Assembly (NCBI GenBank): GCA_040989845.1
Contig: JAYMFZ010000004.1
Coordinates: forward strand, 2,656,824-2,688,823
Reading direction: 5' to 3'
DNA length: 32,000 bases
Origin: Streptomyces sp. WGS_02
Lineage (GTDB): Bacteria > Actinomycetota > Actinomycetes > Streptomycetales > Streptomycetaceae
Positions 17,502-32,000 of this stretch are shown piece after piece (positions within the stretch are counted from its first letter, which is position 1; each line of letters begins with the position of its first letter). The translations under genes and the position numbers were made by a program. The notes beneath the pieces were generated by a model. That model saw only the letters and a list, made by a program, of their open reading frames with translations, made no database searches and was not told the DNA's origin.

Positions 17502-17549
17502 GGGCGGGGGTGCGCGCGTACGGGGGGCATGCGCGGGGCGTGGCGGGGT

Positions 17550-17721
17550 GAGGCGGGTGCGCGGGCCGGCGGAGGCGGGTGCGCGGGCGGAGGCGGGTGC
17601 GCGGGCCGGCGGAGGCGGGTGCACGGGCGCGCGGGCGGAGGCGGAGGCGGGCGCGCGGGCGGAGGCGGGCGCGCGCGGGGTGAGGCGGGATCGCGGGCGG
17701 AGGCGGGTGCACGGGCGGAGG
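17550..17721. repeat. Imperfect GC-rich minisatellite, core about 18 bp (GAGGCGGGTGCGCGGGCG)
   Basis: GAGGCG recurs about nine times in 172 bp, with 18-bp units and 22-26 bp variants, in the convergent gap between 17501 and 17737. Confidence 0.9.
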
Positions 17722-17736
17722 CTCAGCCTGGACGCC

Positions 17737-19204: not shown

Positions 19205-20152
19205 TCAGCCGGCCAGGGCCCCCAGCAGCACTCCGGTCAGCGCCCCGGCGATCATGAACGGGCCGAACGGGATGCCGGTCCTGCGTCCCGCCCGGCGCAG
19301 GAGGACGAGGGCGAGTCCGTACGCCGCCCCGAACAGGAACCCGGCGAACCCGCCCACGAACAGCACGGTCCAGCCGTACCAGCCGAGGGCGACGCCCAGG
19401 GCGAGCGCGAGCTTCACATCGCCGAAGCCCATGCCGTTCGGGTTGATCAGGAAGAGCAGCAGGTAGAAACCGCCGAGGGCCAGGCCGCCCAGCAGCCCGG
19501 CGGTCCAGGACCCGGCGTGCCCGGGGAGGAGTGCCGCCCCGCCGAGCAGCAGGACGGCCAAAGCCGCGAGGGGCAGGGTCAGCGGGTCGGGCAGCCGGTG
19601 GACCCGCCGGTCGACGACGGCGAGAAGCACGGCGACAGGGGCCAGCGCCAGCCACCCGACGAGCTCGGGCCGGGCCCCGGTGGCGGCGGCGAGCGCGACA
19701 CAGGCGAGGACGCTGACGAGGGGGGCGAGGATGCCGGGGGCGTAGGCAGGGGTCGCAAGGGCGGCCGTGATCTGCGGTTCCGGACCGGGCGCTTCCGAAG
19801 CCGGGGCTCCCGGGCCGGGGGTTTCCGGGACCGGGGCCCCGGGGACGGGCGTTGCCGTGGGCCGCGATTCCGGGCCCGGGGCGGCCGGGGCCTGCGACTC
19901 CGGGGCGGGCGGTTCCGCGTCCTGGCCGCCCGAACCGGGGGTTTCCGGGACCCGGGCGGCCGGGGCGGCGCAAGGGGCGCACCGGGCCGGGCCGAGCCAG
20001 CCGCGGGCCGGGCCGGTGAGCGGGTGGCCGGCGGGGCACGCCGTGCGCCAGGGCTCGTCCGGCTCGACGGCGAACCGGTAGGCGGCACGCGGGATCAGCA
20101 GTCCGGTGGCGGCACCCCAGACCGCGGCGAGGGCGAGCAGCACGGCGTCCAC
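19205..20152 (-). CDS. Prepilin peptidase (A24 family) with a long Pro/Glu/Ala-rich linker
   Basis: LLFLINPNGMGFGDVKLALALGVALGWYG (catalytic GxGD), AVVDRRVHRLPDPLTLPLAAL (first Asp region), N-terminal TACPAGHPL...ARCAPCAA. Confidence 0.93.
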   Translation of the reverse strand: MDAVLLALAAVWGAATGLLIPRAAYRFAVEPDEPWRTACPAGHPLTGPARGWLGPARCAPCAAPAARVPETPGSGGQDAEPPAPESQAPAAPGPESRPTATPVPGAPVPETPGPGAPASEAPGPEPQITAALATPAYAPGILAPLVSVLACVALAAATGARPELVGWLALAPVAVLLAVVDRRVHRLPDPLTLPLAALAVLLLGGAALLPGHAGSWTAGLLGGLALGGFYLLLFLINPNGMGFGDVKLALALGVALGWYGWTVLFVGGFAGFLFGAAYGLALVLLRRAGRRTGIPFGPFMIAGALTGVLLGALAG

Positions 20153-20276
20153 GGGGCGACCCTAACGGGCCTCGGGACCTGGGGTCTTGGGTCCGGGGGC
20201 CCAGAGCGGCCGGCCGGGACCCAAGCGTCGCCGTTCCGGGTCCGGGCACGTCCGCCGGGGGCTACCGTCGGTGCCC

Positions 20277-20675
20277 ATGAGGACATGGCGCGATGGCGAC
20301 GGGACGCTAACGGTCGGTACGGACTCCGGGCCCGGGCCGGAGGGGCAGGCGGTTCCGCTGCGGATAGCCGCCTCGTACCGGGCCCGCGCCAAGGGGCTGC
20401 TCGGGCGGGACGGGATCGAGGGGGCGATGCTGCTCACCCCGTGCGGGAGCGTGCACACCTTCCGGATGCGGTTCCCCATCGATGTGGCGTACCTCGACCG
20501 GAAGTTCAGGGTCCTGGCGGTCACCACGATGCAGCCGGGCCGCCTCGGGCTGCCCCGGCTGCGGGCCCGGCACGTGGTGGAGGCGGAGGCCGGGGCGATG
20601 GCGCGGTGGGGGGTGCGGCCGGGCGTACGGCTGGAGCTGAAGGCGGCACCGGCCACCGCGCCGGAACCCAGCTAG
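20277..20675 (+). CDS. DUF192 domain protein
   Basis: SYRARAKGLLGRDGIEGAMLLTPCGSVHTFRMRFPIDVAYLDRKFRVLAVTTMQPGRLG matches DUF192. Confidence 0.9.
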   Translation: MRTWRDGDGTLTVGTDSGPGPEGQAVPLRIAASYRARAKGLLGRDGIEGAMLLTPCGSVHTFRMRFPIDVAYLDRKFRVLAVTTMQPGRLGLPRLRARHVVEAEAGAMARWGVRPGVRLELKAAPATAPEPS

Positions 20676-20681
20676 GAGGCT

Positions 20682-20794
20682 ACGGCGGGCCCGCGTCCGG
20701 GCAGGCGCGGCCTCCCGGCGGGCCCGCGGTCCGGGGGCGCGACCCCCCGGCGGGCCCGCGGTCCGGGGTGGCGCCGGCTCACGGCGGGCCCGCG
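20682..20794. repeat. Four copies of CGGCGGGCCCGCG, two embedded in a longer CCCGGCGGGCCCGCGGTCCGGGG repeat
   Basis: Core at about 20682, 20716, 20748 and 20782. Long copies at 20714-20736 and 20746-20768 (32-bp period). Confidence 0.8.
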
Positions 20795-21981
20795 CCCAGC
20801 AGGGTCCAGGCGCCGTAGGCCGCTGACGCGCAGGCGAGGGCGGCGAGCACGGCGGCCGTGCGGCCCGTGGTGCGCAGCCGCAGCAGGGCGACGGCGGGCG
20901 GGAGCAGCAGCGGGAAGGCGGGCATCATCAGCCGTGGCCGGGAGCCGAAGTATCCGGCGCCGATCAGCGAGATGACGACGATCGTGATCGCGTAGACGAG
21001 TACGGGGAGCGGTTGCCGCTGCCGTACGCAGAGGACGACCAGCCACCCCAGCAGCGCGAGCGCCGCGCACAGGCCGAGGGCGGCGGGCCACGGCAGCCCG
21101 GCGATGAAGGCGGCGAGCGCGCGGCCGCCGTCGATGTTGTTGCCCCACTGCGCCTGGACGTCGAAGTAGGCGACCGGGCTGCCCTCGCGTACGGCCACGA
21201 ACACCACGTACGCCAGCCAGCCCAGCGGTGCGAGCGCCACGCCCGCGATCATCCGCGCGTGGCGGCGGAGCACCGGGCCGGCGCGGCGCTCGTCGCGGTA
21301 CTCCCGTACGAGGGTGACGGCGGCGGTGATCGCCAGGGCCGCGATGAGGGCGGCCGCCGAGGGCCGGGTGAGCCCTGCCAGGACGCACAGCGCCCCCGCG
21401 ACGATCCAGCGGCCCTTGAGGACGGCGTACAGCGCCCAGGCGGCGAGCGCGGTGAACAGTGTCTCGGTGTACGCCATCGACTGGACGAACGCCGTCGGGT
21501 AGACGCCCCACAGTGCCGCCAGCACCACCCCCGTACGCCGTCCGCGCAGCTGGGAGCCGACGGCGAAGATGCCCCAGGCGGCGAGCAGCCCGGCCGTCCA
21601 GGCGACCAGCAGTCCGGCGCCCCCGAGGGTGAGCGGAGTCACGGCGGAGACGGCGCGTTCGAGGGCCGGGAGCAGGGGGAAGAACGCCAGATCGGAGTGG
21701 ACGGAGCCGTCGGGGAGGGTGACGGTGTAGCGGTAGCCGTGCTCGGCGATGCGCTGGTACCAGACGGAGTCCCAGCGTCCGCTGAGCGGCCCCAGGGGGT
21801 CCTTCCCGGCGGCGGAGGCGGCCACCCAGAAGACGAGGAGCCCCAGGGCCCGCACGGCGGCGTAGACCGCGAGCGCGGGCGCGGCGGCCCGGAGCGCGGC
21901 GGCGGCCCGGGACCCGCCGGGAGTGCGGGGGGCCGGGGCCGGTCCTGCGGGCGTCCGGGTGCGGAGCTGGTGATCGGACAT
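20779..21981 (-). CDS. Polytopic glycosyltransferase, PIG-V/mannosyltransferase-like
   Basis: WDSVWYQRIAEHGYRYTVTLPDGSVHSDLAFFPLLPALERAVS, followed by many TM helices including YPTAFVQSMAYTETLFTALAAWALYAVLKGRW and GLTRPSA. Confidence 0.85.
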   Translation of the reverse strand: MSDHQLRTRTPAGPAPAPRTPGGSRAAAALRAAAPALAVYAAVRALGLLVFWVAASAAGKDPLGPLSGRWDSVWYQRIAEHGYRYTVTLPDGSVHSDLAFFPLLPALERAVSAVTPLTLGGAGLLVAWTAGLLAAWGIFAVGSQLRGRRTGVVLAALWGVYPTAFVQSMAYTETLFTALAAWALYAVLKGRWIVAGALCVLAGLTRPSAAALIAALAITAAVTLVREYRDERRAGPVLRRHARMIAGVALAPLGWLAYVVFVAVREGSPVAYFDVQAQWGNNIDGGRALAAFIAGLPWPAALGLCAALALLGWLVVLCVRQRQPLPVLVYAITIVVISLIGAGYFGSRPRLMMPAFPLLLPPAVALLRLRTTGRTAAVLAALACASAAYGAWTLLGAGPP

Positions 21982-23033: not shown

Positions 23034-25073
23034 GTGAGCGGTGACGGGGGCGCAGACCGGGGGCGGGCCCGGGGAGACCGGAGCGCGGGACACATACCGC
23101 TGGGACGCCACGGCATCGCCGGTTCCGGTGTCCCGCACCCGCCCCAGCAGGGCAGCCGTTTCTTCGCGTTGACCCGGAGCTGGGTGATCGGCGGCCTGGT
23201 CTACCTCGCCCTCGGGTTCGTCATGAGCCGGGTCCTGGTCGATCTGCTGGCCACCGAGGAGCGGCTGGAGGCGTTCGGCTGGCGGCTGGCCCTGCTCCAC
23301 CTGCCCGCCCTCGTCGTGACGCTGCTGACGGTGCTGGCGGCGACCCGCGTCCTTCCCGAGGAGCACCGCGAGTCCTCCCGCACGGTGTATCTGCTCGCGG
23401 CCCTGGTCGTACCGCTGGCCGGGCTGCTGTACGGCTTTGCCGTCGCGGGGGACGTCGTCGGCATCGAGGGCCTGCTCATGCCCGCCGCGTCCCTGGCGGC
23501 GGGCGCGGCGTCGGGGGTGGCCGTCGACCGGCTGCTGGAGGAGCGCGCCACGCGCGCCCCGGAGCCGCCCCGGTACGCGTACAACTGGCGGGACAGCGGT
23601 GCGACGGCGATGGAGTACCTGGGTCTCGTCGTCCTCGTCACGATGCTGATCGGCGCGATGGCGATGGCAGGGGTCGGCGGCAAGATCGGGGAGCGGCTGC
23701 GGTGTGCGATCAGCTCGCTGGCCGGTGGCGGCGGCTCCTGTGCGTCCGGCGGCCAGGACCCCGAGGCCAAGCCGAAGACGGACGCGGACTACGAACCGAA
23801 GATGTGCCAGGTCTCCAGCATCTCGGACACGGCGGGCGGGAAGGTCAAGATCGGCTGGTTCGAGTGGGGCGAGGAGTACGGCTTCCAGCAGAAGGTCTCC
23901 CAGGCGAGTACCGATGTGAACGGCGACGGCACGGTCGACGGCAAGGACAAGATCGTCTCGATGACGTTCACCGACGCCGCGTCCGCCGGGGCCACCGCCA
24001 GTACACCGGGCGTCAAGCTCGGCAGCCTGGGCAAGGCGGATGTCGACATCGGCGGCGGCATCAAGATCACCAACGGTGACACCTGGATCTTCGCGAGCGA
24101 GGAGGAGGCTCAGCGGATGCGGGACGACATCGAGGAGATGAAGATGTGGGAGACCTCCACCAAGCACAGCGGCGGCTACGGCGGCGGCTGGTACTCCGCG
24201 ATGAAGTGGGCGGAGAAGAAGGAGGACATCGAGAAGAAGATCGGCGACAAGAAGATCTCCTACTCGACCGTCGGCCTCAACGCCTACGCGGACGGCGGCC
24301 TCTCCGTCAAGGGCGGCGACGAGGACGAACTGGGCGCGAAACTCGGGGGCAAGGCGACGTTCTCGCCCGAGGTGACGATCACCAAGGACGACGTGAACGG
24401 CAACGAGTCGTCCACGTACACCGCCAAGCTCGAACTGGAGGGCAAGGCCGGCGGGAACGTGGGTCCGGTCAAGGGCACGGTGGGCGGCAAGCAGAGCCGT
24501 ACCGGCGCCATCACCGTCACCCGCGACCAGAAGACCGGGAAGATCGTCCGGATCGACATGACACAGACCGTGGAGAGCGGTTCGACGTCCGGCAAGGTCG
24601 AGGTCGGCGGCGACAACGGCGAGAGCGGCCAGGACAAGCGGGGCGGCAAGGGCAGCGCGTCGGACTCCTCGGGCGGGACGGGCATCGACGTCGTGACGAA
24701 CTCGATCGTCTTCGGCAAGGACACGGACGCGGCGACCGAGGCCAAGCGGGGCATCGCGGAACAGTGGCTGGACGGCTCCGGCAACAACACGGCCCCCTTC
24801 GAGTACCTCTTCGGCGACCACGGCATGGAGAACCGCCCGGACGGCAACGACCCGTTCCAGCAGCTGATGTTCGAGGACGGGCTGTCCAGCACCCTGCGGT
24901 ACACGGGCGAGAGCGACGCCCAGGAGTTCGGCTTCGAGATCTCCCTCGGGATGAGCCTCGGGTTCTCCCTCTCCACGGAGGAGAAGAAGGAGACACTGAC
25001 GGACGCGCAGTTCCTCGGGGCGCCGCGGGGCGACGCGCGCACGTATCTTCCGTACAGCTACTGCGCGAACTGA
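23034..25073 (+). CDS. Large membrane/extracytoplasmic protein (679 aa) with embedded type IVb (Flp-like) prepilin signature
   Basis: GTG 23034 after gaggagagg. About four N-terminal hydrophobic segments, then RDSG|ATAMEYLGLVVLVTMLIGAMAMAGVGGKIGERLRC, then a long Gly/Lys/Asp/Thr-rich soluble domain. Confidence 0.85.
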   Translation: MSGDGGADRGRARGDRSAGHIPLGRHGIAGSGVPHPPQQGSRFFALTRSWVIGGLVYLALGFVMSRVLVDLLATEERLEAFGWRLALLHLPALVVTLLTVLAATRVLPEEHRESSRTVYLLAALVVPLAGLLYGFAVAGDVVGIEGLLMPAASLAAGAASGVAVDRLLEERATRAPEPPRYAYNWRDSGATAMEYLGLVVLVTMLIGAMAMAGVGGKIGERLRCAISSLAGGGGSCASGGQDPEAKPKTDADYEPKMCQVSSISDTAGGKVKIGWFEWGEEYGFQQKVSQASTDVNGDGTVDGKDKIVSMTFTDAASAGATASTPGVKLGSLGKADVDIGGGIKITNGDTWIFASEEEAQRMRDDIEEMKMWETSTKHSGGYGGGWYSAMKWAEKKEDIEKKIGDKKISYSTVGLNAYADGGLSVKGGDEDELGAKLGGKATFSPEVTITKDDVNGNESSTYTAKLELEGKAGGNVGPVKGTVGGKQSRTGAITVTRDQKTGKIVRIDMTQTVESGSTSGKVEVGGDNGESGQDKRGGKGSASDSSGGTGIDVVTNSIVFGKDTDAATEAKRGIAEQWLDGSGNNTAPFEYLFGDHGMENRPDGNDPFQQLMFEDGLSSTLRYTGESDAQEFGFEISLGMSLGFSLSTEEKKETLTDAQFLGAPRGDARTYLPYSYCAN

Positions 25074-25080
25074 ACGGGCG

Positions 25081-25767
25081 GTGACGGAGTCGATGAGCAC
25101 GGCGATGAGCACAGCGATGAGTCCGGCGATGAGCACAGCGATGAACTCGGCCATGAGGACCAGGACGCGGAACATGCGGACAGCCCCGGGGCGGATGACG
25201 GCTGCGGCGGCGGCCGTCGCGGCGGCGGCCGTGCTGCTGACCGGATGCGGCGGCGACGCGGACAAGGCCTCCGTGCCCGAGGGCTGGGGCACGTTGGAGA
25301 CCGACAGCCTGAGCGTCGGCTACCCGAGGAGTGAGGGGTACGCGGAGCAGCCCGCGGGCGAGCGGGCCAAGGCCAACGCGGCCGTCGCGCTCAAGGAGGA
25401 GAACGGCATCCGGACCGGCATGGTCTCGGTCCAGCGGGACTTCGCCACGGGGGTGCACGACGCGGCCGGGGCGGCGGCAGCAGCGGGCGCGGGCATCGGC
25501 CTCAACTCCACCCGCAAGGCGACGGACGACGTACGCCTCGCGGGCCCGGACGACGCCGGCGAAGGCCGCGAAGCGCGCCGGATCGACTACGACTTCACGG
25601 CGGACGGCCGGGAGGACACCCCGAACAGGGGGACGCCGATGACCGGGGTCCTGGTCGCGGGGGTGGACTCGAAGGGTGTTCCGTTCGTCGTGCGCCTGAA
25701 CGCGGTGAAGGACGCGGTGGAGGCGGAGGACCTGGACGCGTTCGTGGGGTCGATCACGGTGAAGTAG
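25081..25767 (+). CDS. Secreted lipoprotein, probably co-transcribed with the upstream gene
   Basis: Starts 7 nt after the upstream stop. Signal peptide with lipobox MRTAPGRMTAAAAAVAAAAVLLTGCGGDADKASVPEGWGTLETDSLSVGYP. True start uncertain. Confidence 0.8.
   Translation: MTESMSTAMSTAMSPAMSTAMNSAMRTRTRNMRTAPGRMTAAAAAVAAAAVLLTGCGGDADKASVPEGWGTLETDSLSVGYPRSEGYAEQPAGERAKANAAVALKEENGIRTGMVSVQRDFATGVHDAAGAAAAAGAGIGLNSTRKATDDVRLAGPDDAGEGREARRIDYDFTADGREDTPNRGTPMTGVLVAGVDSKGVPFVVRLNAVKDAVEAEDLDAFVGSITVK
25093..25152. repeat. 12-bp tandem repeat, five units, each beginning with an in-frame ATG (encodes M-S-T-A type repeats)
   Basis: ATGAGCACGGCG ATGAGCACAGCG ATGAGTCCGGCG ATGAGCACAGCG ATGAACTCGGCC, then ATG. 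Confidence 0.95.
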
Positions 25768-25789: not shown

Positions 25790-26401
25790 ATGTTCGACGG
25801 CGACCGGCCCTATCTCCCGAGCGACGCCCTGGACCGGGAGGCGGCCGAGGTCGTCGCGCGGGCGGCGGGAGCGGAGGATCCGGGGGCGGTGGTGGACCCG
25901 GACTCCGTGGAGTCGCCGGCCCGGGCGGCCCGCCGCCTCCCGCCGTGGCCCGACACCGTGGCGGGGCTCGCCCGCCTCGCCGGGCGCTTCCCGCTGATCG
26001 GCCTGTCCAACGCGAGCCGGACGGCGCTGCCGGAGCTGAACGCCCACGCCGGGCTGCGCCGGCACCAGGCGCTGTCCGCGCAGGACGCCCGTACGTACAA
26101 GCCGGATCCGGCGGTCCACCGGCTCGCCGTCACCTTCGCCGGGCTGCCGCCGGAGCGCCTGCTGATGGTCGCCGCCCACGCCTGGGACCTGCGCGGCGCG
26201 CAGGCGCTGGGGCTGCGCACGGCGCATGCGGCCCGCCCGGTCGGCGACCCGCCCACGCCCTCGGACCGCTTCGACCTCCATGCCGAGGACCTGACGGATC
26301 TGGCGGGTCAGCAGGGGGCATCCTGGGGACGGGGGAACACGGCGCTCCTCAGCTCAGCGGGCAACCGAGCGGGAGGACGCGTTCGGTCAGCCGGCCGGTG
26401 A
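25790..26401 (+). pseudogene. N-terminally truncated haloacid dehalogenase-like protein
   Basis: Has HAD motif II/III-like segments (LIGLSNASRTALPELNAHAGL, ARTYKPDPAVHRLAV, LMVAAHAWDLRGAQALGLRTA) but no DxxxT nucleophile motif; the space upstream is occupied by the lipoprotein gene. Confidence 0.65.
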
Positions 26402-27943
26402 GGAGGGTGTCGGTGACGTCGGCCTCCGCCAGCCAGTCCGCGGCGGTCAGCCGGTCCACGAGGTCCGGCAGGTCGGCGGGGTCGACGGAGCACCCGGAGG
26501 ACAGGGCGTCCAGGCCGACGCCCTCCCCTCCGGGCCCCAGCCGCCCTTCGCCGTCGGAGCCGGTGGCCAGGGCCAGGGCGAGAAGCCGTACGTCGGCGCC
26601 GGTCTTGCCCTTGCGGAGCTTCTTCTCCCCGACGACCCGCTGGGCCCATCCGCTGAGCTTGGGGCGCAGCTTCCTGCCGAACGTGAACGGCCCCGGGTCG
26701 TCCTCGTCGGGCGTGAGGGACGGCACGCTGATCCGGGTGGGGCTCTCCGGGCGGGAGGCGATCAGTTCCTCGACGGTCCCGGAGATACCGAGCCAGCCGG
26801 ACTCGACCAGCTGCCCCACCAGGTGCTCGGGATCCTGCAGGGGCAGCCCCTTGATGTCCTGCCCGACCAGATTGCCGACCCCGGACTGCGCGGTGCGCAG
26901 CGTCACCATCAGCACCAGCAGGCGCGCCTCGGCTCCCGGCAGGGGGCGTTCTCGGCCACGTGGGCCAGGACGGCTCGGGCGTGGTTCCACTGCGCGGGGG
27001 CGGTCAGCAGCCGTACGACGGCGTGCCCTTCGCCGTCCGGGGCCTGGCCGATGCGGTGCAGATGCTGGAGGCGGGCGGTGGCGGCGGCCTGTTCGGCCCG
27101 CTGGGCGTCGAGGCGCAGCCCGGTGTCGGCGGTGACCTCGGCCCAGGCGCTGAAGGCCTCCGCTTTACGCGCGTGGAGGTCGGCGAGCATCGCGAGGTCG
27201 GGTTCGGTGCGGGCCTGGTAGGCGCGGAAGAGTTCGCCGAGCTCGGTGAGTTCGTCCCGGAGCGCGACGGGCCGCAGGTCGTGGGGGACGAGGCGCTGAG
27301 CGATCCTCCCGCGCGGGTGCCGCTTCCGCGTCGGCCTCGCGGACCGGGGGGCGGAGCGGGGCGACGACGTCTGTTGGGGGACGGCGGTGGCCGTGGTGGT
27401 GGCGGCGCTGTGCGAGAAGTGCGGGCTGATCGCCGAGAAGGTCGGCGTGTGGACCGCGGGGGCCGCGGGAGCTGCGGTCCCGGCCCGGGGCCCGTCGTTC
27501 CTGGCCGGTGCCTCGGTGGCGGCCGGAGCGGTGGCGACGACCTTCGCGGTGGGGTGGGCGGCGGCGCAGCGCGAGCAGCACTCCATGACCTGCCACCAGC
27601 GCCCTTCCCGGTCCGTGATGACGGCCAGGACGACCGCTCCCCCGCACCGCCAGGGCACGGGGCGCTCACGCGGCCCGGCGGGCCGGATGTGCGTATGGCA
27701 CTCCTCGGCCCGACAGGCGCAGTGCACGGAGGGGCGGGGGGCGGGGCCGGCGCGCAGGTGGGCCTTGAGGTGCGCGATCGCCGCCGTGCGGCCGGCGGCG
27801 GCGGAGGGCAGCACCTGCGCCGCGCAGGCCGGGCGGCTGCACGAGACGCGTACGTCCGCACGACCGCGGCCGACCGGGTCCAGCCGCACCGTCCACCGGC
27901 GTCCCGTCACGCGTTCGTTCGTCGCGTGGGCCTCCACACCCAT
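26349..27943 (-). CDS. Cys-rich hypothetical protein with C-terminal winged-helix-like segment, apparent frameshift near 26942-26946
   Basis: N-terminal frame (ATG 27943) has CSRPAC, HCACRAEECHTH and CCSRCAAAH; continues into another frame (LPGAEARLLVLMVTLRTAQSGVGNLVGQDIKGLPLQDPEHLVGQLVESGWLGI...). Confidence 0.7.
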
Positions 27944-28153
27944 CACACCTTCCTCGACGACTGTTCGTATGCGCACCGCGGCAGCCACCCGCCTGTGCAG
28001 GCGGCTGCCGCGGTGCGCGGCGTGTCACAGTCTGCTACGCCGGGCAGTCCGGATTCCGGCCCACAACACCAACGAGGGTCCGCCGTTCGGGTGACGGCCT
28101 CGGCGGGCATGTGGCCGGATTCCTGCCCTGGCGGTGTGGCCCCGGACGGCACA

Positions 28154-28227: not shown

Positions 28228-28887
28228 TCAGGACCCCTCTCCGCGCGGGAAGGAGACCTCCACGCGGCGGTTCTTCTTCCGGCCCTCTTCGTTGCTGTTG
28301 CTGGCGATCGGGTACTGCTCGCCGTAGCCCCGGATCTCGTACGTGACGGTGGGGCCGAGCTGCTTCGACAGGACCCCGTGCACGGCGTCGGCCCGCTGCT
28401 TGGAGAGGACGTCGCCGTGGGCCGAGGAACCGAGGTTGTCGGTGAAGCCGAAGACGCGGACCTTGGTCGCGTTCTGCTTCTTGATCTCCTCGGCGATGGC
28501 GGCGATACGGGCGTTGGCCGCCGAGCTGAGCTTGGCACTGTCCTTGCCGAAGAGGACTTCGGCCTGGAGCGCGAACTTGATGTCGGCGTTGCTGTCCTCG
28601 CGGCGCTCTTCGCCGCCTAGGTCTTCGACCACCTGGACGATGTCGAGGACGCGGCCGGGGGCGAGGGTGCCGCCTTCGGGCATCTTGAGGTCGGGGTCGT
28701 TCGGGTCGACGGGCACGGGCGGCTCCGACGTCGCCTCCGTACCGGGCGGGACGCTCGGGCCGTCATCGGCGTACGAGGGTGACGCGCCGAGCAGCGTCGT
28801 GCCGGCGATCAGCACGGCGACCGCGACGGCTTGTCCCAGGTTGCGCGCCGCCCGGGGGCGCTGGGTGGTCTTCATGGCCGCGTTCAC
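28228..28887 (-). CDS. Secreted OmpA-family (OmpA C-terminal-like) protein
   Basis: Signal peptide LGQAVAVAVLIAGTTLLGASPSYA; FGKDSAKLSSAANARIAAIAEEIKKQNATKVRVFGFTDNLGSSAHGDVLSKQRADAVHGVL...GYGEQYPIASNSNEEGRKKNRRVEVSF. GTG start at 28887 overlaps the upstream stop. Confidence 0.93.
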   Translation of the reverse strand: MNAAMKTTQRPRAARNLGQAVAVAVLIAGTTLLGASPSYADDGPSVPPGTEATSEPPVPVDPNDPDLKMPEGGTLAPGRVLDIVQVVEDLGGEERREDSNADIKFALQAEVLFGKDSAKLSSAANARIAAIAEEIKKQNATKVRVFGFTDNLGSSAHGDVLSKQRADAVHGVLSKQLGPTVTYEIRGYGEQYPIASNSNEEGRKKNRRVEVSFPRGEGS

Positions 28888-29501
28888 CCAGAAATCTTCA
28901 GCGAGGTGGTGGCGAAGGTCGGAAGGCTGAAGTCGACCTCGGTCGTGTCCTGCGGCGGGGCGGGGAACTGCATGAAGATCGGTGCCGACTTGCCCGGTGC
29001 GAGGGACGTGATCGCCGTGGTGCACAGGCAGCGGGAATCTGTGTCCCGCAGCACGTAGTAACGCTTCTTCCCCGCCTTGTCGACCAGCGTCGCACCGGCG
29101 ACCGAGTTGGGGTTCTTGTTCACGATGTTCACCTCCGAGCCGGCCCAGCCCGAGGTGGTTCGCGCCTGGTCGCCCTCGTTGGTGATCGCGCCCTGCACGG
29201 TGAGGAATCCGCCGGAATCCCGCTTGACCTCGTTGACGACCAGAACCAGGCCGCCCTGCCCGCGTGTCTCCGCGAGTTTCACATCCGGGTCCACGTTCTC
29301 GCCCGCAGCCGTGTCCTCCTGCTGCGACTCGCCCTTGTCCTCCGCGGAGGGGCTGGCCGGGGCGGACGGCGCGCTGGAGCCCTCGTTGCCGGGCTTCTCG
29401 CCTCCGTCGTCGCCACAGCCGGCGAGAGCAAAGGCCAGAGCAGCGGTCATGCTGACAGCCGCCGTGGCCCTTCTGGTCGTCGTGGTCCGCCGCATGCTCA
29501 T
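28884..29501 (-). CDS. Lipoprotein, hypothetical, in the Tad-like operon
   Basis: ATAAVSMTAALAFALAGCGDDGG lipobox; Ser/Pro/Glu-rich linker; globular C-terminus. Confidence 0.85.
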   Translation of the reverse strand: MSMRRTTTTRRATAAVSMTAALAFALAGCGDDGGEKPGNEGSSAPSAPASPSAEDKGESQQEDTAAGENVDPDVKLAETRGQGGLVLVVNEVKRDSGGFLTVQGAITNEGDQARTTSGWAGSEVNIVNKNPNSVAGATLVDKAGKKRYYVLRDTDSRCLCTTAITSLAPGKSAPIFMQFPAPPQDTTEVDFSLPTFATTSLKISG

Positions 29502-29535: not shown

Positions 29536-30144
29536 TCACTGGTCGACCAACCGCACGTCGAAGAGAGTCCTGCTCACCGTCTCCCAGGGTGGAGGGCTGG
29601 CCGGTGCGATCTCGAGAACCTTGCCGTTCCGGCACGTGAAGATGAAAAGGTCCATGATTCCGTCGCTGTTGGCGTCCACAGCCTTCGGGCGGGGGCACCG
29701 GAACTCGATGAGCGCGGTGGCCTCGGCTTTGGCCTTCTTGTTCTCCGAGCCGGGCAGTACCGAGGAGTCGACCGCCTTCAGGCCCTGGACCTCGACCGTG
29801 ATCCGGTCGCGCAGATATCCAGGAGTCGGATAGCACGATTCCATTGTGGCGCCGTTGGCCGCCGCGAGACGGTCCGCCTCGTAACAGGGCGCAATGAAAG
29901 GCGTGTTGAGGAACACGTCCAGCATATTGGTGGGGAGCGAGGCGTAGAAGCCCGTCCCGAAGTCGTCGCGTGCCTGCTGGGCGGCGGCCAGAGCGGCGGC
30001 GTCCGCCGCACCCTGGGAACCGTTGCGCAGAGCCGAGGCCTTACCGACAGCGAAGAAGGCCAACGCAAGGAAGAGCAGGCCCGCCACCATCATCACGTAG
30101 ATGGGGAAGGCCTGCCCTGCGTCGCCGTGTTGGCGCTTATGCAT
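29536..30144 (-). CDS. TadE/TadG-like pilus assembly protein
   Basis: ATG 30144: MHKRQHGDAGQAFPIYVMMVAGLLFLALAFFAVGKASALRNGSQGAADAAALAAAQQARDD is a Tad-type N-terminus. Overlaps the Flp stop. Confidence 0.9.
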   Translation of the reverse strand: MHKRQHGDAGQAFPIYVMMVAGLLFLALAFFAVGKASALRNGSQGAADAAALAAAQQARDDFGTGFYASLPTNMLDVFLNTPFIAPCYEADRLAAANGATMESCYPTPGYLRDRITVEVQGLKAVDSSVLPGSENKKAKAEATALIEFRCPRPKAVDANSDGIMDLFIFTCRNGKVLEIAPASPPPWETVSRTLFDVRLVDQ

Positions 30145-30374
30145 CAGCCCGAGACGATGGAGGTCACCAGTCCGTCGATGCGGCTGGAGATGTTCCCGCC
30201 GATCCCGGAGGCCGCGATCGCCCCGATGATCGCCACGACCACCAGAATGATCCCCAGGTACTCGAACGCCGTCTGCCCCCGGTCCTTCGCCGCGTAGCGC
30301 TTCTGGATCGCGCTGACGGCGGTGTTGGCCCAGCCGTTGACGCGGACGGCGGTCTTCACGGTGATGTCCGACAT
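30144..30374 (-). CDS. Flp/type IVb pilin-like protein (76 aa)
   Basis: MSDITVKTAVRVNGWANTAVSAIQKRYAAKDRG|QTAFEYLGIILVVVAIIGAIAASGIGGNISSRIDGLVTSIVSG, with the class III prepilin site. Confidence 0.93.
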   Translation of the reverse strand: MSDITVKTAVRVNGWANTAVSAIQKRYAAKDRGQTAFEYLGIILVVVAIIGAIAASGIGGNISSRIDGLVTSIVSG

Positions 30375-30584: not shown

Positions 30585-31553
30585 TCACGGCTGCCGCCCG
30601 GGGTTCCGGGGCGCGGTGCCGAGCCAGTGGGCGATGGCCTCGCTGCGGGTGGCGCTGTGGAGCTTCGTGAAGATGCGGTTGATGTGGTTCTTGACCGTCT
30701 TCTCACTGATGAAGCAGGTGGCGGCGATCTGCTGATTACTCATTCCGGACGCAATCAGGTCCATGACCTCCACCTCCCTCGAACTCAGCCCGAACTGCTG
30801 CCTGTTGGGGGTGGATACCGACCCCCCGGATACAGAAGACTGTCCCACAACTGGTTGCAGTTGCGAAAGGCTTTCCGAAGGTTCGGTGGTGTGCGGGGGC
30901 AGTGGGGCCGGCGCCGTGGCCAGTGCCGAGCCCAGGCCCTCGGGGAGCGGGCCCCGCTGGGGCGGCGTGCCGTGGCGCATATGGGCCAGGAGGGCGTCCG
31001 CGGCGGTGACGGTGAAGTTGGCGCGGCCGTCCTTCGTGTCGCGTACCGCCTGGACCAGCTGGTTCGCCGTGAACTCGCCGTGCACCAGATAGCCGCCCGC
31101 GCCCAGCCGCAGCGCCTCGTGGACGATCTCGCTCTCGCGGCTGTATGTCAGCATCAGCACAGGTGCGATGCCGACCAGGTGCGGCAGGGCCGAGATGCCG
31201 TCCACGCCCGGCATGCGGACGTCCAACAGGACGACGTCGGGGCGGTGTTCGAGCGTCCTCTCGTACGCCTCGCGGCCGTCCGCCGCCTCCGCGACCACCT
31301 GGATGTCCGCCCGGCCGGACAGCAGTACGCCCAGGCCGGCCCGGACCACCGGGTTGTCGTCCGCGACCACGACGCGGAGACGTTCGGCGGCCGGGGCGGC
31401 AGGCCCCGGGAAGAAGGGGGACGGGGACGGGATCGCAGGGGGTCGAGGGTCGGGGGCCGGGGTGAGCGGGATGGGCGGCGACGGGTGCTGGGGGGCGGGG
31501 CGGTGAGCCGCCGCCCCGTGGCTGTTCGGCGCAGGGGAGACATCGTCCGGCAT
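30585..31553 (-). CDS. LuxR/NarL-family response regulator
   Basis: RVVVADDNPVVRAGLGVLLSGRADIQVVAEAADGREA...DVVLLDVRMPGVDG receiver; LSSREVEVMDLIASGMSNQQIAATCFISEKTVKNHINRIFTKL HTH. Pro-rich N-terminal extension and long linker. Confidence 0.95.
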   Translation of the reverse strand: MPDDVSPAPNSHGAAAHRPAPQHPSPPIPLTPAPDPRPPAIPSPSPFFPGPAAPAAERLRVVVADDNPVVRAGLGVLLSGRADIQVVAEAADGREAYERTLEHRPDVVLLDVRMPGVDGISALPHLVGIAPVLMLTYSRESEIVHEALRLGAGGYLVHGEFTANQLVQAVRDTKDGRANFTVTAADALLAHMRHGTPPQRGPLPEGLGSALATAPAPLPPHTTEPSESLSQLQPVVGQSSVSGGSVSTPNRQQFGLSSREVEVMDLIASGMSNQQIAATCFISEKTVKNHINRIFTKLHSATRSEAIAHWLGTAPRNPGRQP

Positions 31554-31580
31554 GCTGCGACCTCCTCTCAGGGTCGAGGG

Positions 31581-32000
31581 TTACGGGTGAGTGGCGTGTC
31601 CGTATTCGGCTGCTGGTGCGGAAGCACGTACGGGTACGGAAGCGGGCCGGGGAGCCGACGACGGGCTTTCCACGGACCCGCCCGCCAGCGCCGCCAGCGG
31701 GAGCTCCACCCGTACCTCCGTCCCCTTCTCCGCCTTCCCCCGCCCGATCCTGATCCGGGCCCCGATCGACGCCGCCCGCTCCACCATGCCGACCAGGCCG
31801 AAGTGGCCCGCCCGGCGCAGTGCTTCCAGGGTCGTTCCGGCGGGCAGGCCGCGGCCGTCGTCGTACACGGTGACGCGGAGCATGTCGCCCTTCACGCCCG
31901 CGAGGACGATCAGGTACGTCGGGGACGCGTGGCGGTGTGCGTTCTCCATGGCCTCCGAGGCGACGGTGAGGAGCTGGCGGGCCACTGCCTGCGGGACCGG
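31581..32000 (-). CDS. Sensor histidine kinase, C-terminal part (5' end beyond the window)
   Basis: ASEAMENAHRHASPTYLIVLAGVKGDMLRVTVYDDGRGLPAG...AGHFGLVGMVERAASIGARIRIGRGKAEKGTEVRVELP matches a NarX/DegS-type HATPase_c; frame open past 31985 to the edge. Confidence 0.93.
   Translation of the reverse strand, partial: PVPQAVARQLLTVASEAMENAHRHASPTYLIVLAGVKGDMLRVTVYDDGRGLPAGTTLEALRRAGHFGLVGMVERAASIGARIRIGRGKAEKGTEVRVELPLAALAGGSVESPSSAPRPASVPVRASAPAAEYGHATHP

Follow-up and report, generated by a model that had tools for sequence, protein, structure and literature searches.

An apparent Streptomyces gene fusion that places a Flp-type prepilin signal between a four-helix membrane module and a large beta-rich protein

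The target gene and its embedded prepilin motif

We analysed a 32,000-nucleotide stretch of the Streptomyces sp. WGS_02 genome (the window), centring on a forward-strand gene that starts with GTG at 23034. Its 679-residue product carries a Flp-type (class III) prepilin motif behind four predicted transmembrane helices, and a prepilin peptidase gene and part of a tad pilus operon lie nearby (Table 1). The window has a G+C content of about 72%, and the nearest relatives are S. rubiginosohelvolus, S. globisporus and S. parvus, with 96–97% protein identity for the target gene. The open reading frame (ORF), which is open from 22923, is a real gene, because the in-frame G+C content at third codon positions (GC3) is 0.91, the GTG is preceded by the Shine–Dalgarno-like sequence GGAGAGGG, and homologues begin at the same point, with N termini reading MSGGGG. 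More than 200 Streptomyces homologues were found, every one of them named 'hypothetical'.

The product opens with a Gly/Arg-rich tail, predicted to be cytoplasmic and disordered, which has 7 Lys or Arg in residues 1–48, is poorly conserved (mean pairwise identity 56%) and is modelled by AlphaFold2 (AF2) with a predicted local distance difference test (pLDDT) score below 50 at residues 1–38. The four-transmembrane-helix module behind it has the conserved motifs RSW, ERLExFGWR, H-x-P, EG and D-R and matches no Pfam family. Hydropathy analysis gives hydrophobic segments at about residues 49–69, 83–103, 117–137 and 141–164, plus a fifth at 194–214, and AF2 gives helices at 41–72, 81–106, 116–138, 145–172 and 188–211; both agree with the roughly four hydrophobic N-terminal segments claimed in an earlier, sequence-only reading of this DNA. 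The fifth segment, alpha1N, has a hydropathy peak of 2.41 at residues 196–214. It is followed in the model by a second helix (214–229) and by a Gly-rich stretch with pLDDT below 50 across residues 231–241, which leads into a beta-rich C-terminal domain.

Lys or Arg occurs 15 times in the segments predicted to be cytoplasmic (the tail, loop 2 and loop 4), as against once in the predicted outside loops 1 and 3, and the linker loop that ends in the motif carries 5, consistent with a cytoplasmic location. Because of this distribution, we predict that the N terminus is inside, the cleavage-site loop cytoplasmic and the C-terminal domain outside. The first module (residues ~41–172) would then be a four-helix inner-membrane protein with both ends in the cytoplasm. 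A24 prepilin peptidases act at the cytoplasmic face of the membrane, and the predicted topology would therefore place the cut site where these enzymes act.

The motif itself reads WRDSG/ATAMEYLG, the slash marking the predicted cut; the full string is NWRDSG/ATAMEYLGLVVLVTMLIGAMAMAGVGGKIGERLRC. The codon of G189, at position −1, occupies 23598–23600, such that the cut would fall between nucleotides 23600 and 23601 and leave 490 residues. Gly at −1, an acidic residue at +5 and Tyr at +6, here G189, E194 and Y195, belong to the defining features of Flp prepilins (PMC3244431). When the six-frame translation of the entire window was scanned for G-x4-E-[YF] followed by a hydrophobic stretch, just two sites were returned, the target motif and the Flp pilin gene of the tad operon. 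BLASTP aligned the target with that pilin at 22 of 58 identities (E 5e-12 for the pair). When a profile of the region built from 67 diverse relatives was compared by hhalign with 31 Flp pilins from Streptomyces tad operons, the alignment had a probability of 98.1% (E 8e-14) over 48 columns covering the end of the leader and alpha1. Several statements of the sequence-only reading are borne out by these results, namely the string with its Gly, Glu and hydrophobic stretch, the mature part of about 490 residues, and the 18 identities over 38 positions in a hand alignment with the window's Flp pilin, for which our recount gives the same figure. Its label 'type IVb' fits less well than Flp/Tad (type IVc).

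Conservation of G(−1) and E(+5), the check that had been proposed for the motif, also came out in its favour. Among the 67 diverse relatives, G(−1) is present in every sequence, E(+5) in 57, with D in a further 7, Y(+6) in 43 and G(+8) in 52. All 147 fused homologues retain G(−1), E/D(+5) and Y/F(+6). The linker at residues 173–189 is the least conserved stretch, with a mean pairwise identity of 49% compared with 79% for the motif and alpha1N and 83% for the beta domain, yet D187 and G189 within it are invariant. Because the motif is retained throughout while the linker upstream of it is least conserved, the site is likely to be still functional. Judged by these comparisons, the motif inside the target is a real class III signal of the Flp type and not a chance resemblance, and there is little doubt that the protein belongs to the Flp-type class III family.

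The beta-rich domain (~430 residues) is the most conserved region. AF2 models it with good confidence, at a pLDDT of 79.6 and a predicted template modelling score (pTM) of 0.79, with about 12 antiparallel strands of 15–20 residues, two long helices and three short ones. It is rich in G, S, K, D, T and E, and its strands are only mildly amphipathic. C236, C258 and C677 are invariant, and a fourth Cys is nearly conserved (C224 in close homologues; aligned position 227 in 62 of the 67 diverse relatives). The EF-hand/dockerin-like loop gives a weak Dockerin_1 match in 11 of 74 family members (best E 0.004). Its form DVNGDGxVDxxD, in which D294, N296, D298, G299, D302 and D305 are invariant among close homologues, is confined to the Streptomyces subclade, distant relatives having SDGxV there. 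The loop may bind calcium, and both it and the conserved Cys residues fit an exported domain. Foldseek comparison of the full-length and domain-only models with the PDB gave template-modelling scores (TM-scores) of at most 0.30 and root-mean-square deviations (rmsd) of 13–30 Å, and no match for the isolated domain at E ≤0.001. The PDB matches returned were all outer-membrane barrels; we rejected them, the FadL/TodX/CymA/autotransporter type included, as generic beta-meander resemblance at those TM-scores, and a natterin-like profile match (E 0.89) was treated as noise and not relied on.

Two proteins in the relatives, one in the target

An exhaustive HMMER search of 1.84 billion representatives yielded 198 relatives. 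Most are 450–530 residues long and align to query residues ~185–679 from their own residue ~5–30. Their N termini read [DE]-R-G/A-x-x-x-E-Y-x-G behind a short basic leader of 5–30 residues, as in MRGQGNSERG/ATGLEYVG and MFWPRHRTGDRG/ATAIEYVG, and some short-leader Streptomyces members are already labelled 'Flp family type IVb pilin' by some sources. The four-helix module has stand-alone homologues of ~130–190 residues (P0203, P0229, P0233, P0248, P0251, P0258 and P0260). Proteins of ~130–160 residues from the same search match just query residues ~30–170 and end shortly after the fourth helix, where the leader begins. In the unfused Streptomyces cassettes (loci L005–L008, L092 and L093, L005 being from S. 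afghaniensis), the large protein, a lipoprotein, a DUF3592-like protein and a ~150-residue four-helix protein have separate genes; in locus L094, the four-helix gene directly follows the large gene. No separate four-helix copy was present within 10 kb in any of 80 fused-type loci.

Because unfused relatives encode both modules separately in the same cassette, we regard the target gene as a fusion of two proteins whose junction is the predicted prepilin peptidase site. The second module (residues ~173–679) belongs to a family of large Flp-type prepilin-like proteins that is widespread in actinobacteria, occurring across Streptomyces and in at least two other actinomycete genera.

These relationships alter the earlier picture of a membrane-integrated prepilin-like protein. 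A genuine Flp-type signal, a predicted cytoplasmic cut face and linkage to peptidase and tad genes all agree with that picture, but the polytopic domain is not the unusual leader it was taken for; it is a separate family with its own ~150-residue gene in unfused Streptomyces. The fusion is conserved in 147 sequences; most relatives are unfused. The sequence-only reading had counted two separately encoded proteins among the outcomes that would tell against it. That pattern is what we find, but we take it to favour cleavage at the junction, because cleavage at G189 would regenerate the ancestral two-protein state.

A 686-residue protein from an ENA metagenome (P0175) has a different polytopic N-domain ahead of a YRDGG/AAVVEFVG motif. 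A hidden Markov model of the four-helix module matched neither this N-domain nor the membrane-protein gene upstream of a family member in a Nostocoides metagenome-assembled genome (locus L089). In P0175, a membrane protein may have been fused independently to a member of the same pilin-like family, which hints that such fusions recur.

The lipoprotein cassette, the peptidase and the tad operon

Table 1. Positions of the target gene, its regions and the neighbouring pilus-related genes in the window
Feature	Position	Strand	Basis
Target gene, 679-residue predicted fusion protein	23034–25073	+	ORF list, GC3, Shine–Dalgarno-like sequence, homologues
Residues 1–40, Gly/Arg-rich N-terminal tail, predicted cytoplasmic and disordered	23034–23153	+	Charge, pLDDT, conservation
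Residues 41–172, four-transmembrane-helix module	23154–23549	+	Hydropathy, AF2 helices, stand-alone homologues
Residues 173–189, leader-like basic linker ending WRDSG	23550–23600	+	Conservation, charge
Residues 190–214, ATAMEY..., E194 (+5), Y195 (+6), hydrophobic alpha1N helix, predicted fifth transmembrane segment	23601–23675	+	
Residues 215–248, second helix and Gly-rich flexible linker with C224 and C236	23676–23777	+	
Residues 249–679, beta-rich domain, predicted extracytoplasmic	23778–25070	+	AF2, conservation
Residues 292–305, STDVNGDGTVDGKD, EF-hand/dockerin-like loop	23907–23948	+	Weak Dockerin_1 match, conserved residues
Partner lipoprotein gene, lipobox LLTGC	25081–25767	+	Directly downstream of target
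TadV-like A24 prepilin peptidase, presumed processing enzyme	19205–20152	−	PF01478, E 1.8e-13
OmpA-family peptidoglycan-binding protein	28228 to about 28872	−	PF00691, E 2.3e-15; order as in L001 and L004
tad-operon lipoprotein	28884–29501	−	Operon end; order as in L001 and L004
Tad/TadE-G-like (Rv3654c-family) pseudopilin-like gene, 202 residues	29536–30144	−	PF13400, E 8.8e-6
Flp-like major pilin, DRG/QTAFEYLG	30144–30374	−	Motif scan; between response regulator and Tad-domain gene

Gene neighbourhoods were counted in 70 Streptomyces species loci with full 10-kb flanks. A contig scan with closer alignment gave only close fused-type Streptomyces loci, and the context of distant members comes from a few look-ups. 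The partner lipoprotein gene lies directly downstream of the target on the same strand in all 70 loci, and its homologues also follow unfused genes. The lipoprotein matched no Pfam or NCBIfam family and no PDB entry. A 12-nucleotide tandem repeat of 5.6 copies (25091–25157) encodes an (MSTA)n stretch between the target stop codon and the lipoprotein signal peptide. Homologues of the lipoprotein lack this stretch, and its true start is probably a later Met, at 25174 or 25195.

An A24 prepilin peptidase gene is found within 10 kb upstream in 68 of the 70 loci. The enzyme encoded in the window, whose identification in the sequence-only reading is upheld by the Peptidase_A24 match, contains the Asp-containing motifs VDRRVHRLPD and GMGFGDVK and gave no match to a PilD-type N-terminal domain. 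Within its gene, 15/30-nucleotide tandem repeats at 19778–19857 encode a Pro/Ala/Gly-rich insert, with an N-terminal Cys-containing segment before it and the A24 domain (residues 169–279) after it. Orthologues are 45–55 residues shorter, at 260–270 residues.

The tad operon had likewise been recognised correctly, with its Flp motif and its Tad/TadE-G-like domain in adjoining genes; the product of the latter gene also matches TIGR03816 (E 3.4e-9, under the cut-off of that model). The 3′ end of the operon comprises the genes for the OmpA-like protein, a lipoprotein, the Tad-domain protein, Flp and a LuxR regulator, and in related genomes the operon continues with genes for a histidine kinase, TadC, TadB, TadA, TadE proteins, TadZ and an RcpC-like protein. 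This end lies within 10 kb of the target in about 30 of the 70 loci. In unfused species, the cassette flanks the opposite end of the tad operon, whose first gene is divergent from it. The operon resembles the mycobacterial Rv3654c–Rv3660c locus in having Flp, an Rv3654c-family TadE-like protein, TadC, TadB, TadA and TadZ (PMC9531140). It differs in that no description was found there of any large protein with a Flp motif, nor of a lipoprotein or a four-helix cassette, the mycobacterial locus itself not having been examined directly.

Inside the operon, between TadC and Flp, are a histidine kinase gene and a LuxR-type response regulator gene (30585–32000, minus strand), an arrangement also seen in loci L001 and L004. 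At the operon's end lie genes for a lipoprotein and an OmpA-family peptidoglycan-binding protein, the bacterium being monoderm. A DUF3592-like gene is present in 46 of the 70 loci. Beside the peptidase gene is a DUF192 gene (20187–20675, plus strand), found in 69 of the 70 loci, and next to that a gene for a PIG-V-like (GT-C type) mannosyltransferase-like membrane protein (20779–21981, minus strand), found in 48. The DUF192 protein or the mannosyltransferase-like protein could be part of the pilus system, for example in pilin glycosylation. Locus L089 (9530–12894), from a distant genus, has the large gene and a gene for a 184-residue lipoprotein among housekeeping genes, with a 130-residue multi-pass membrane protein and a Rce1-like CPBP intramembrane protease encoded next to them.

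Processing and possible roles of the protein

Three groups of known proteins invite comparison. With Flp/Fap pilins, which belong to Tad (type IVc) systems and are processed by TadV, the target shares Gly at −1, Glu at +5, Tyr at +6 and a hydrophobic helix of about 20 residues (PMC3244431), as well as detectable homology to Streptomyces Flp and linkage to an A24 peptidase and a tad operon. It differs in having a mature part of 490 residues rather than the ~50–60 of a major Flp pilin, a motif placed after 189 residues and four helices, and no significant match to the Pfam Flp_Fap model. By size it could at most be a modular or minor pilin, and not the major Flp subunit.

The second group consists of modular minor pilins such as Streptococcus sanguinis PilB and PilC, CofB/TcpB and GspK, in which a flexible linker connects a small pilin module with a bulky one. 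The bulky module is expected to fit only at the filament tip, and such a protein occurs in a monoderm bacterium too (PMC8179133). For the target, AF2 predicts a helix at residues 188–229, a low-confidence Gly-rich linker at 231–241 and an independent beta domain. The pilin module of the target, however, is just a Flp-like helix without a globular pilin head, its extra module has no recognised domain or fold, and a polytopic pro-region is absent from the described examples. The third group, TadG, KilN and CpaL, are likewise large pilin-like proteins encoded with tad loci; they are predicted to be processed by prepilin peptidase and to take part in a complex at the tip that tailors what the Tad pilus does (PMC12075869, PMC12607857). 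The target differs from them in lacking PF13400, PF07811 and a vWA domain, in an N terminus that is Flp-like rather than TadE/G-like, and in the location of its gene in a cassette of its own with a lipoprotein, outside the operon.

On balance, we favour the view that the target encodes a modular Flp-type minor pilin with a polytopic pro-region that is cut off at the cytoplasmic face of the membrane. From the comparisons above we infer a course of events in which the polypeptide would enter the membrane with five helices and expose its G189–A190 bond on the cytoplasmic side, where the neighbouring TadV-like A24 peptidase would cut this bond to give the two-protein state of the unfused species. 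That the fused form is cleaved seems probable. The 490-residue mature protein would be the minor pilin, its alpha1 helix staying in the membrane until uptake into a pilus by the adjacent Tad machinery (TadA, TadB, TadC, Flp and TadE-like proteins). Because of its bulk, the likeliest position for the mature protein in a pilus would be the tip, where it would display the beta domain; bulky modular minor pilins have been proposed at pilus tips before, as for PilB (PMC8179133), TadG/KilN (PMC12075869) and CpaL (PMC12607857). We put forward incorporation at the tip tentatively, as somewhat short of an even chance. The lipoprotein and the four-helix module would probably be partners in handling, docking or retention.

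Several observations weigh against this view. Class III leaders have been characterised as short, hydrophilic peptides (PMC8179133), whereas the motif here is preceded by 189 residues and four transmembrane helices, and no precedent for a polytopic prepilin leader was found in the literature searched. In the model, the pilin module would have to pack into a filament with just a helix and a linker. The sequence-only reading had suggested a search for Flp and TadE signatures, which was negative for the target: the Pfam Flp_Fap, TadE and Tad models give no match in the protein. PF07811 (TadE) and PF13400 (Tad) are also unmatched in the sets of 67 and 74 relatives, and PF04964 weakly matches just 3 of 74 family members, the target not among them. 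For the beta domain, Pfam and NCBIfam scans gave no match, nor did PDB sequence searches with the target protein and two family profiles. In about 40 of the 70 Streptomyces loci, more than 10 kb separates the gene from the end of the tad operon, and no tad genes lie within 10 kb of the cassette in L089. Finally, gene order in the unfused cassettes differs from the four-helix-then-pilin order of the fusion, and the fusion thus needed a rearrangement.

The leading alternative, which we consider unlikely, is that the product remains an uncleaved five-helix membrane protein. The Flp-like helix would then be no more than a fifth membrane anchor that keeps the beta domain on the outside of the cytoplasmic membrane, never in a pilus, and in the fused lineage the protein would be permanently tethered to its four-helix partner. 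A polytopic N-terminal region of 189 residues is indeed unlike the described class III leaders (PMC8179133), fusion of two interacting membrane proteins requires no cleavage per se, and AF2 models a continuous five-helix membrane region, albeit with low confidence (pLDDT ~60). Against this, D187 and G189 are invariant and E/D(+5) and Y/F(+6) are kept in 147 of 147 fused sequences while the linker drifts to 49% identity. A charged Glu at +5 would not be expected to persist in a plain anchor helix, and the gene stays near a prepilin peptidase gene in 68 of the 70 loci.

A quite improbable alternative gives the protein the role of an effector and not of a structural pilin; after cleavage, its beta domain would be pushed out or released by the Tad machine acting as a type II secretion piston. 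The beta domain might then be membrane-active or pore-forming and the four-helix module a protective, immunity-like partner. The long amphipathic beta meander, with its weak resemblance in 3Di comparison to membrane beta-barrels, and the faint, non-significant match to the aerolysin-like natterin profile (E 0.89) point in this direction, as do the small polytopic membrane proteins that recur beside or fused to the family (the gene upstream in L089; P0175) and the contact killing mediated by Tad tips in Myxococcus (PMC12075869). However, TM-scores of at most 0.30 with rmsd of 15–25 Å represent no real barrel match, the domain is rich in K, D, E, G, S and T and only mildly amphipathic, and Streptomyces has no outer membrane to host a barrel. 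The 83% conservation of the beta domain is unlike that of arms-race toxins and argues equally against a fast-evolving adhesin; we rejected a polymorphic-toxin reading because conservation is highest in the C-terminal domain. A more elaborate version, in which Tad delivers a membrane-active, pore- or channel-forming tip effector that acts on other cells through contact and the peptidase frees the four-helix module as an immunity-like factor made in cis, giving a self-neutralised pilin-effector polyprotein, seems to us more improbable still.

It is very improbable that a short-leader prepilin is made from an internal start, alongside or in place of the fusion protein. This strain does have an in-frame GTG 28 codons ahead of G189 (V162, 23517–23519), but that GTG lacks a spaced Shine–Dalgarno sequence, homologues have T, L or A at this position, and a single ORF is retained in 147 sequence clusters. 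We looked for a conserved internal start codon in the homologue alignment and, finding none, rejected this possibility. Although high-G+C DNA has many long spurious ORFs, the likelihood that the ORF is such an artefact or the motif a chance resemblance is negligible, being refuted already by the hundreds of conserved homologues, the in-frame GC3 of 0.91, the hhalign E value of 8e-14 and the presence of just two motif sites in the six-frame translation.

If our preferred account of a cleaved modular minor pilin holds, the prepilin peptidase would serve as an internal maturation protease, cutting behind four transmembrane helices, where two proteins encoded separately in other species are joined. 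To our knowledge, class III signal peptides are taken to lie only at the N terminus and to have short hydrophilic leaders, an assumption shared by pilin-finding software. Large modular pilins are already known. What is new is an actinobacterial family in which a Flp-like helix is joined to a domain without a fold match and is always paired with a lipoprotein, together with a class III signal behind a polytopic module, for which the literature searched offered no precedent. The searches made returned no annotation, domain signature or fold match for this large Flp-type family, and the literature searched contained no description of it and nothing on the role of Tad pili in Streptomyces. The fusion would be a Rosetta-stone clue tying an unnoticed four-helix protein and the adjacent lipoprotein to the large Flp-type pilin family.

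The wider region has some further features. Between the peptidase, the cassette and the tad operon lies an island that varies across species and in several of them carries polymorphic toxin and immunity genes, including Tox-REase-5/Imm52 and PT-HINT (L002, 16665–19839; L004, 7410–8876; L094, 3066–5826). In the window, two overlapping ORFs in different frames at 26349–27988 (minus strand) jointly match a 548-residue Cys-rich hypothetical protein of a close relative (L001, 13605–15251); the frame switch near 26943 is either a frameshift in a pseudogene or a sequencing error. Two GC-rich tandem arrays with 66–82% matches are also present, one at 17542–17722 (periods of 18, 22 and 40 nucleotides) between an AlkZ-like gene and the next gene, and one at 20682–20794 (period of 32 nucleotides) at the boundary of the DUF192 and glycosyltransferase genes.

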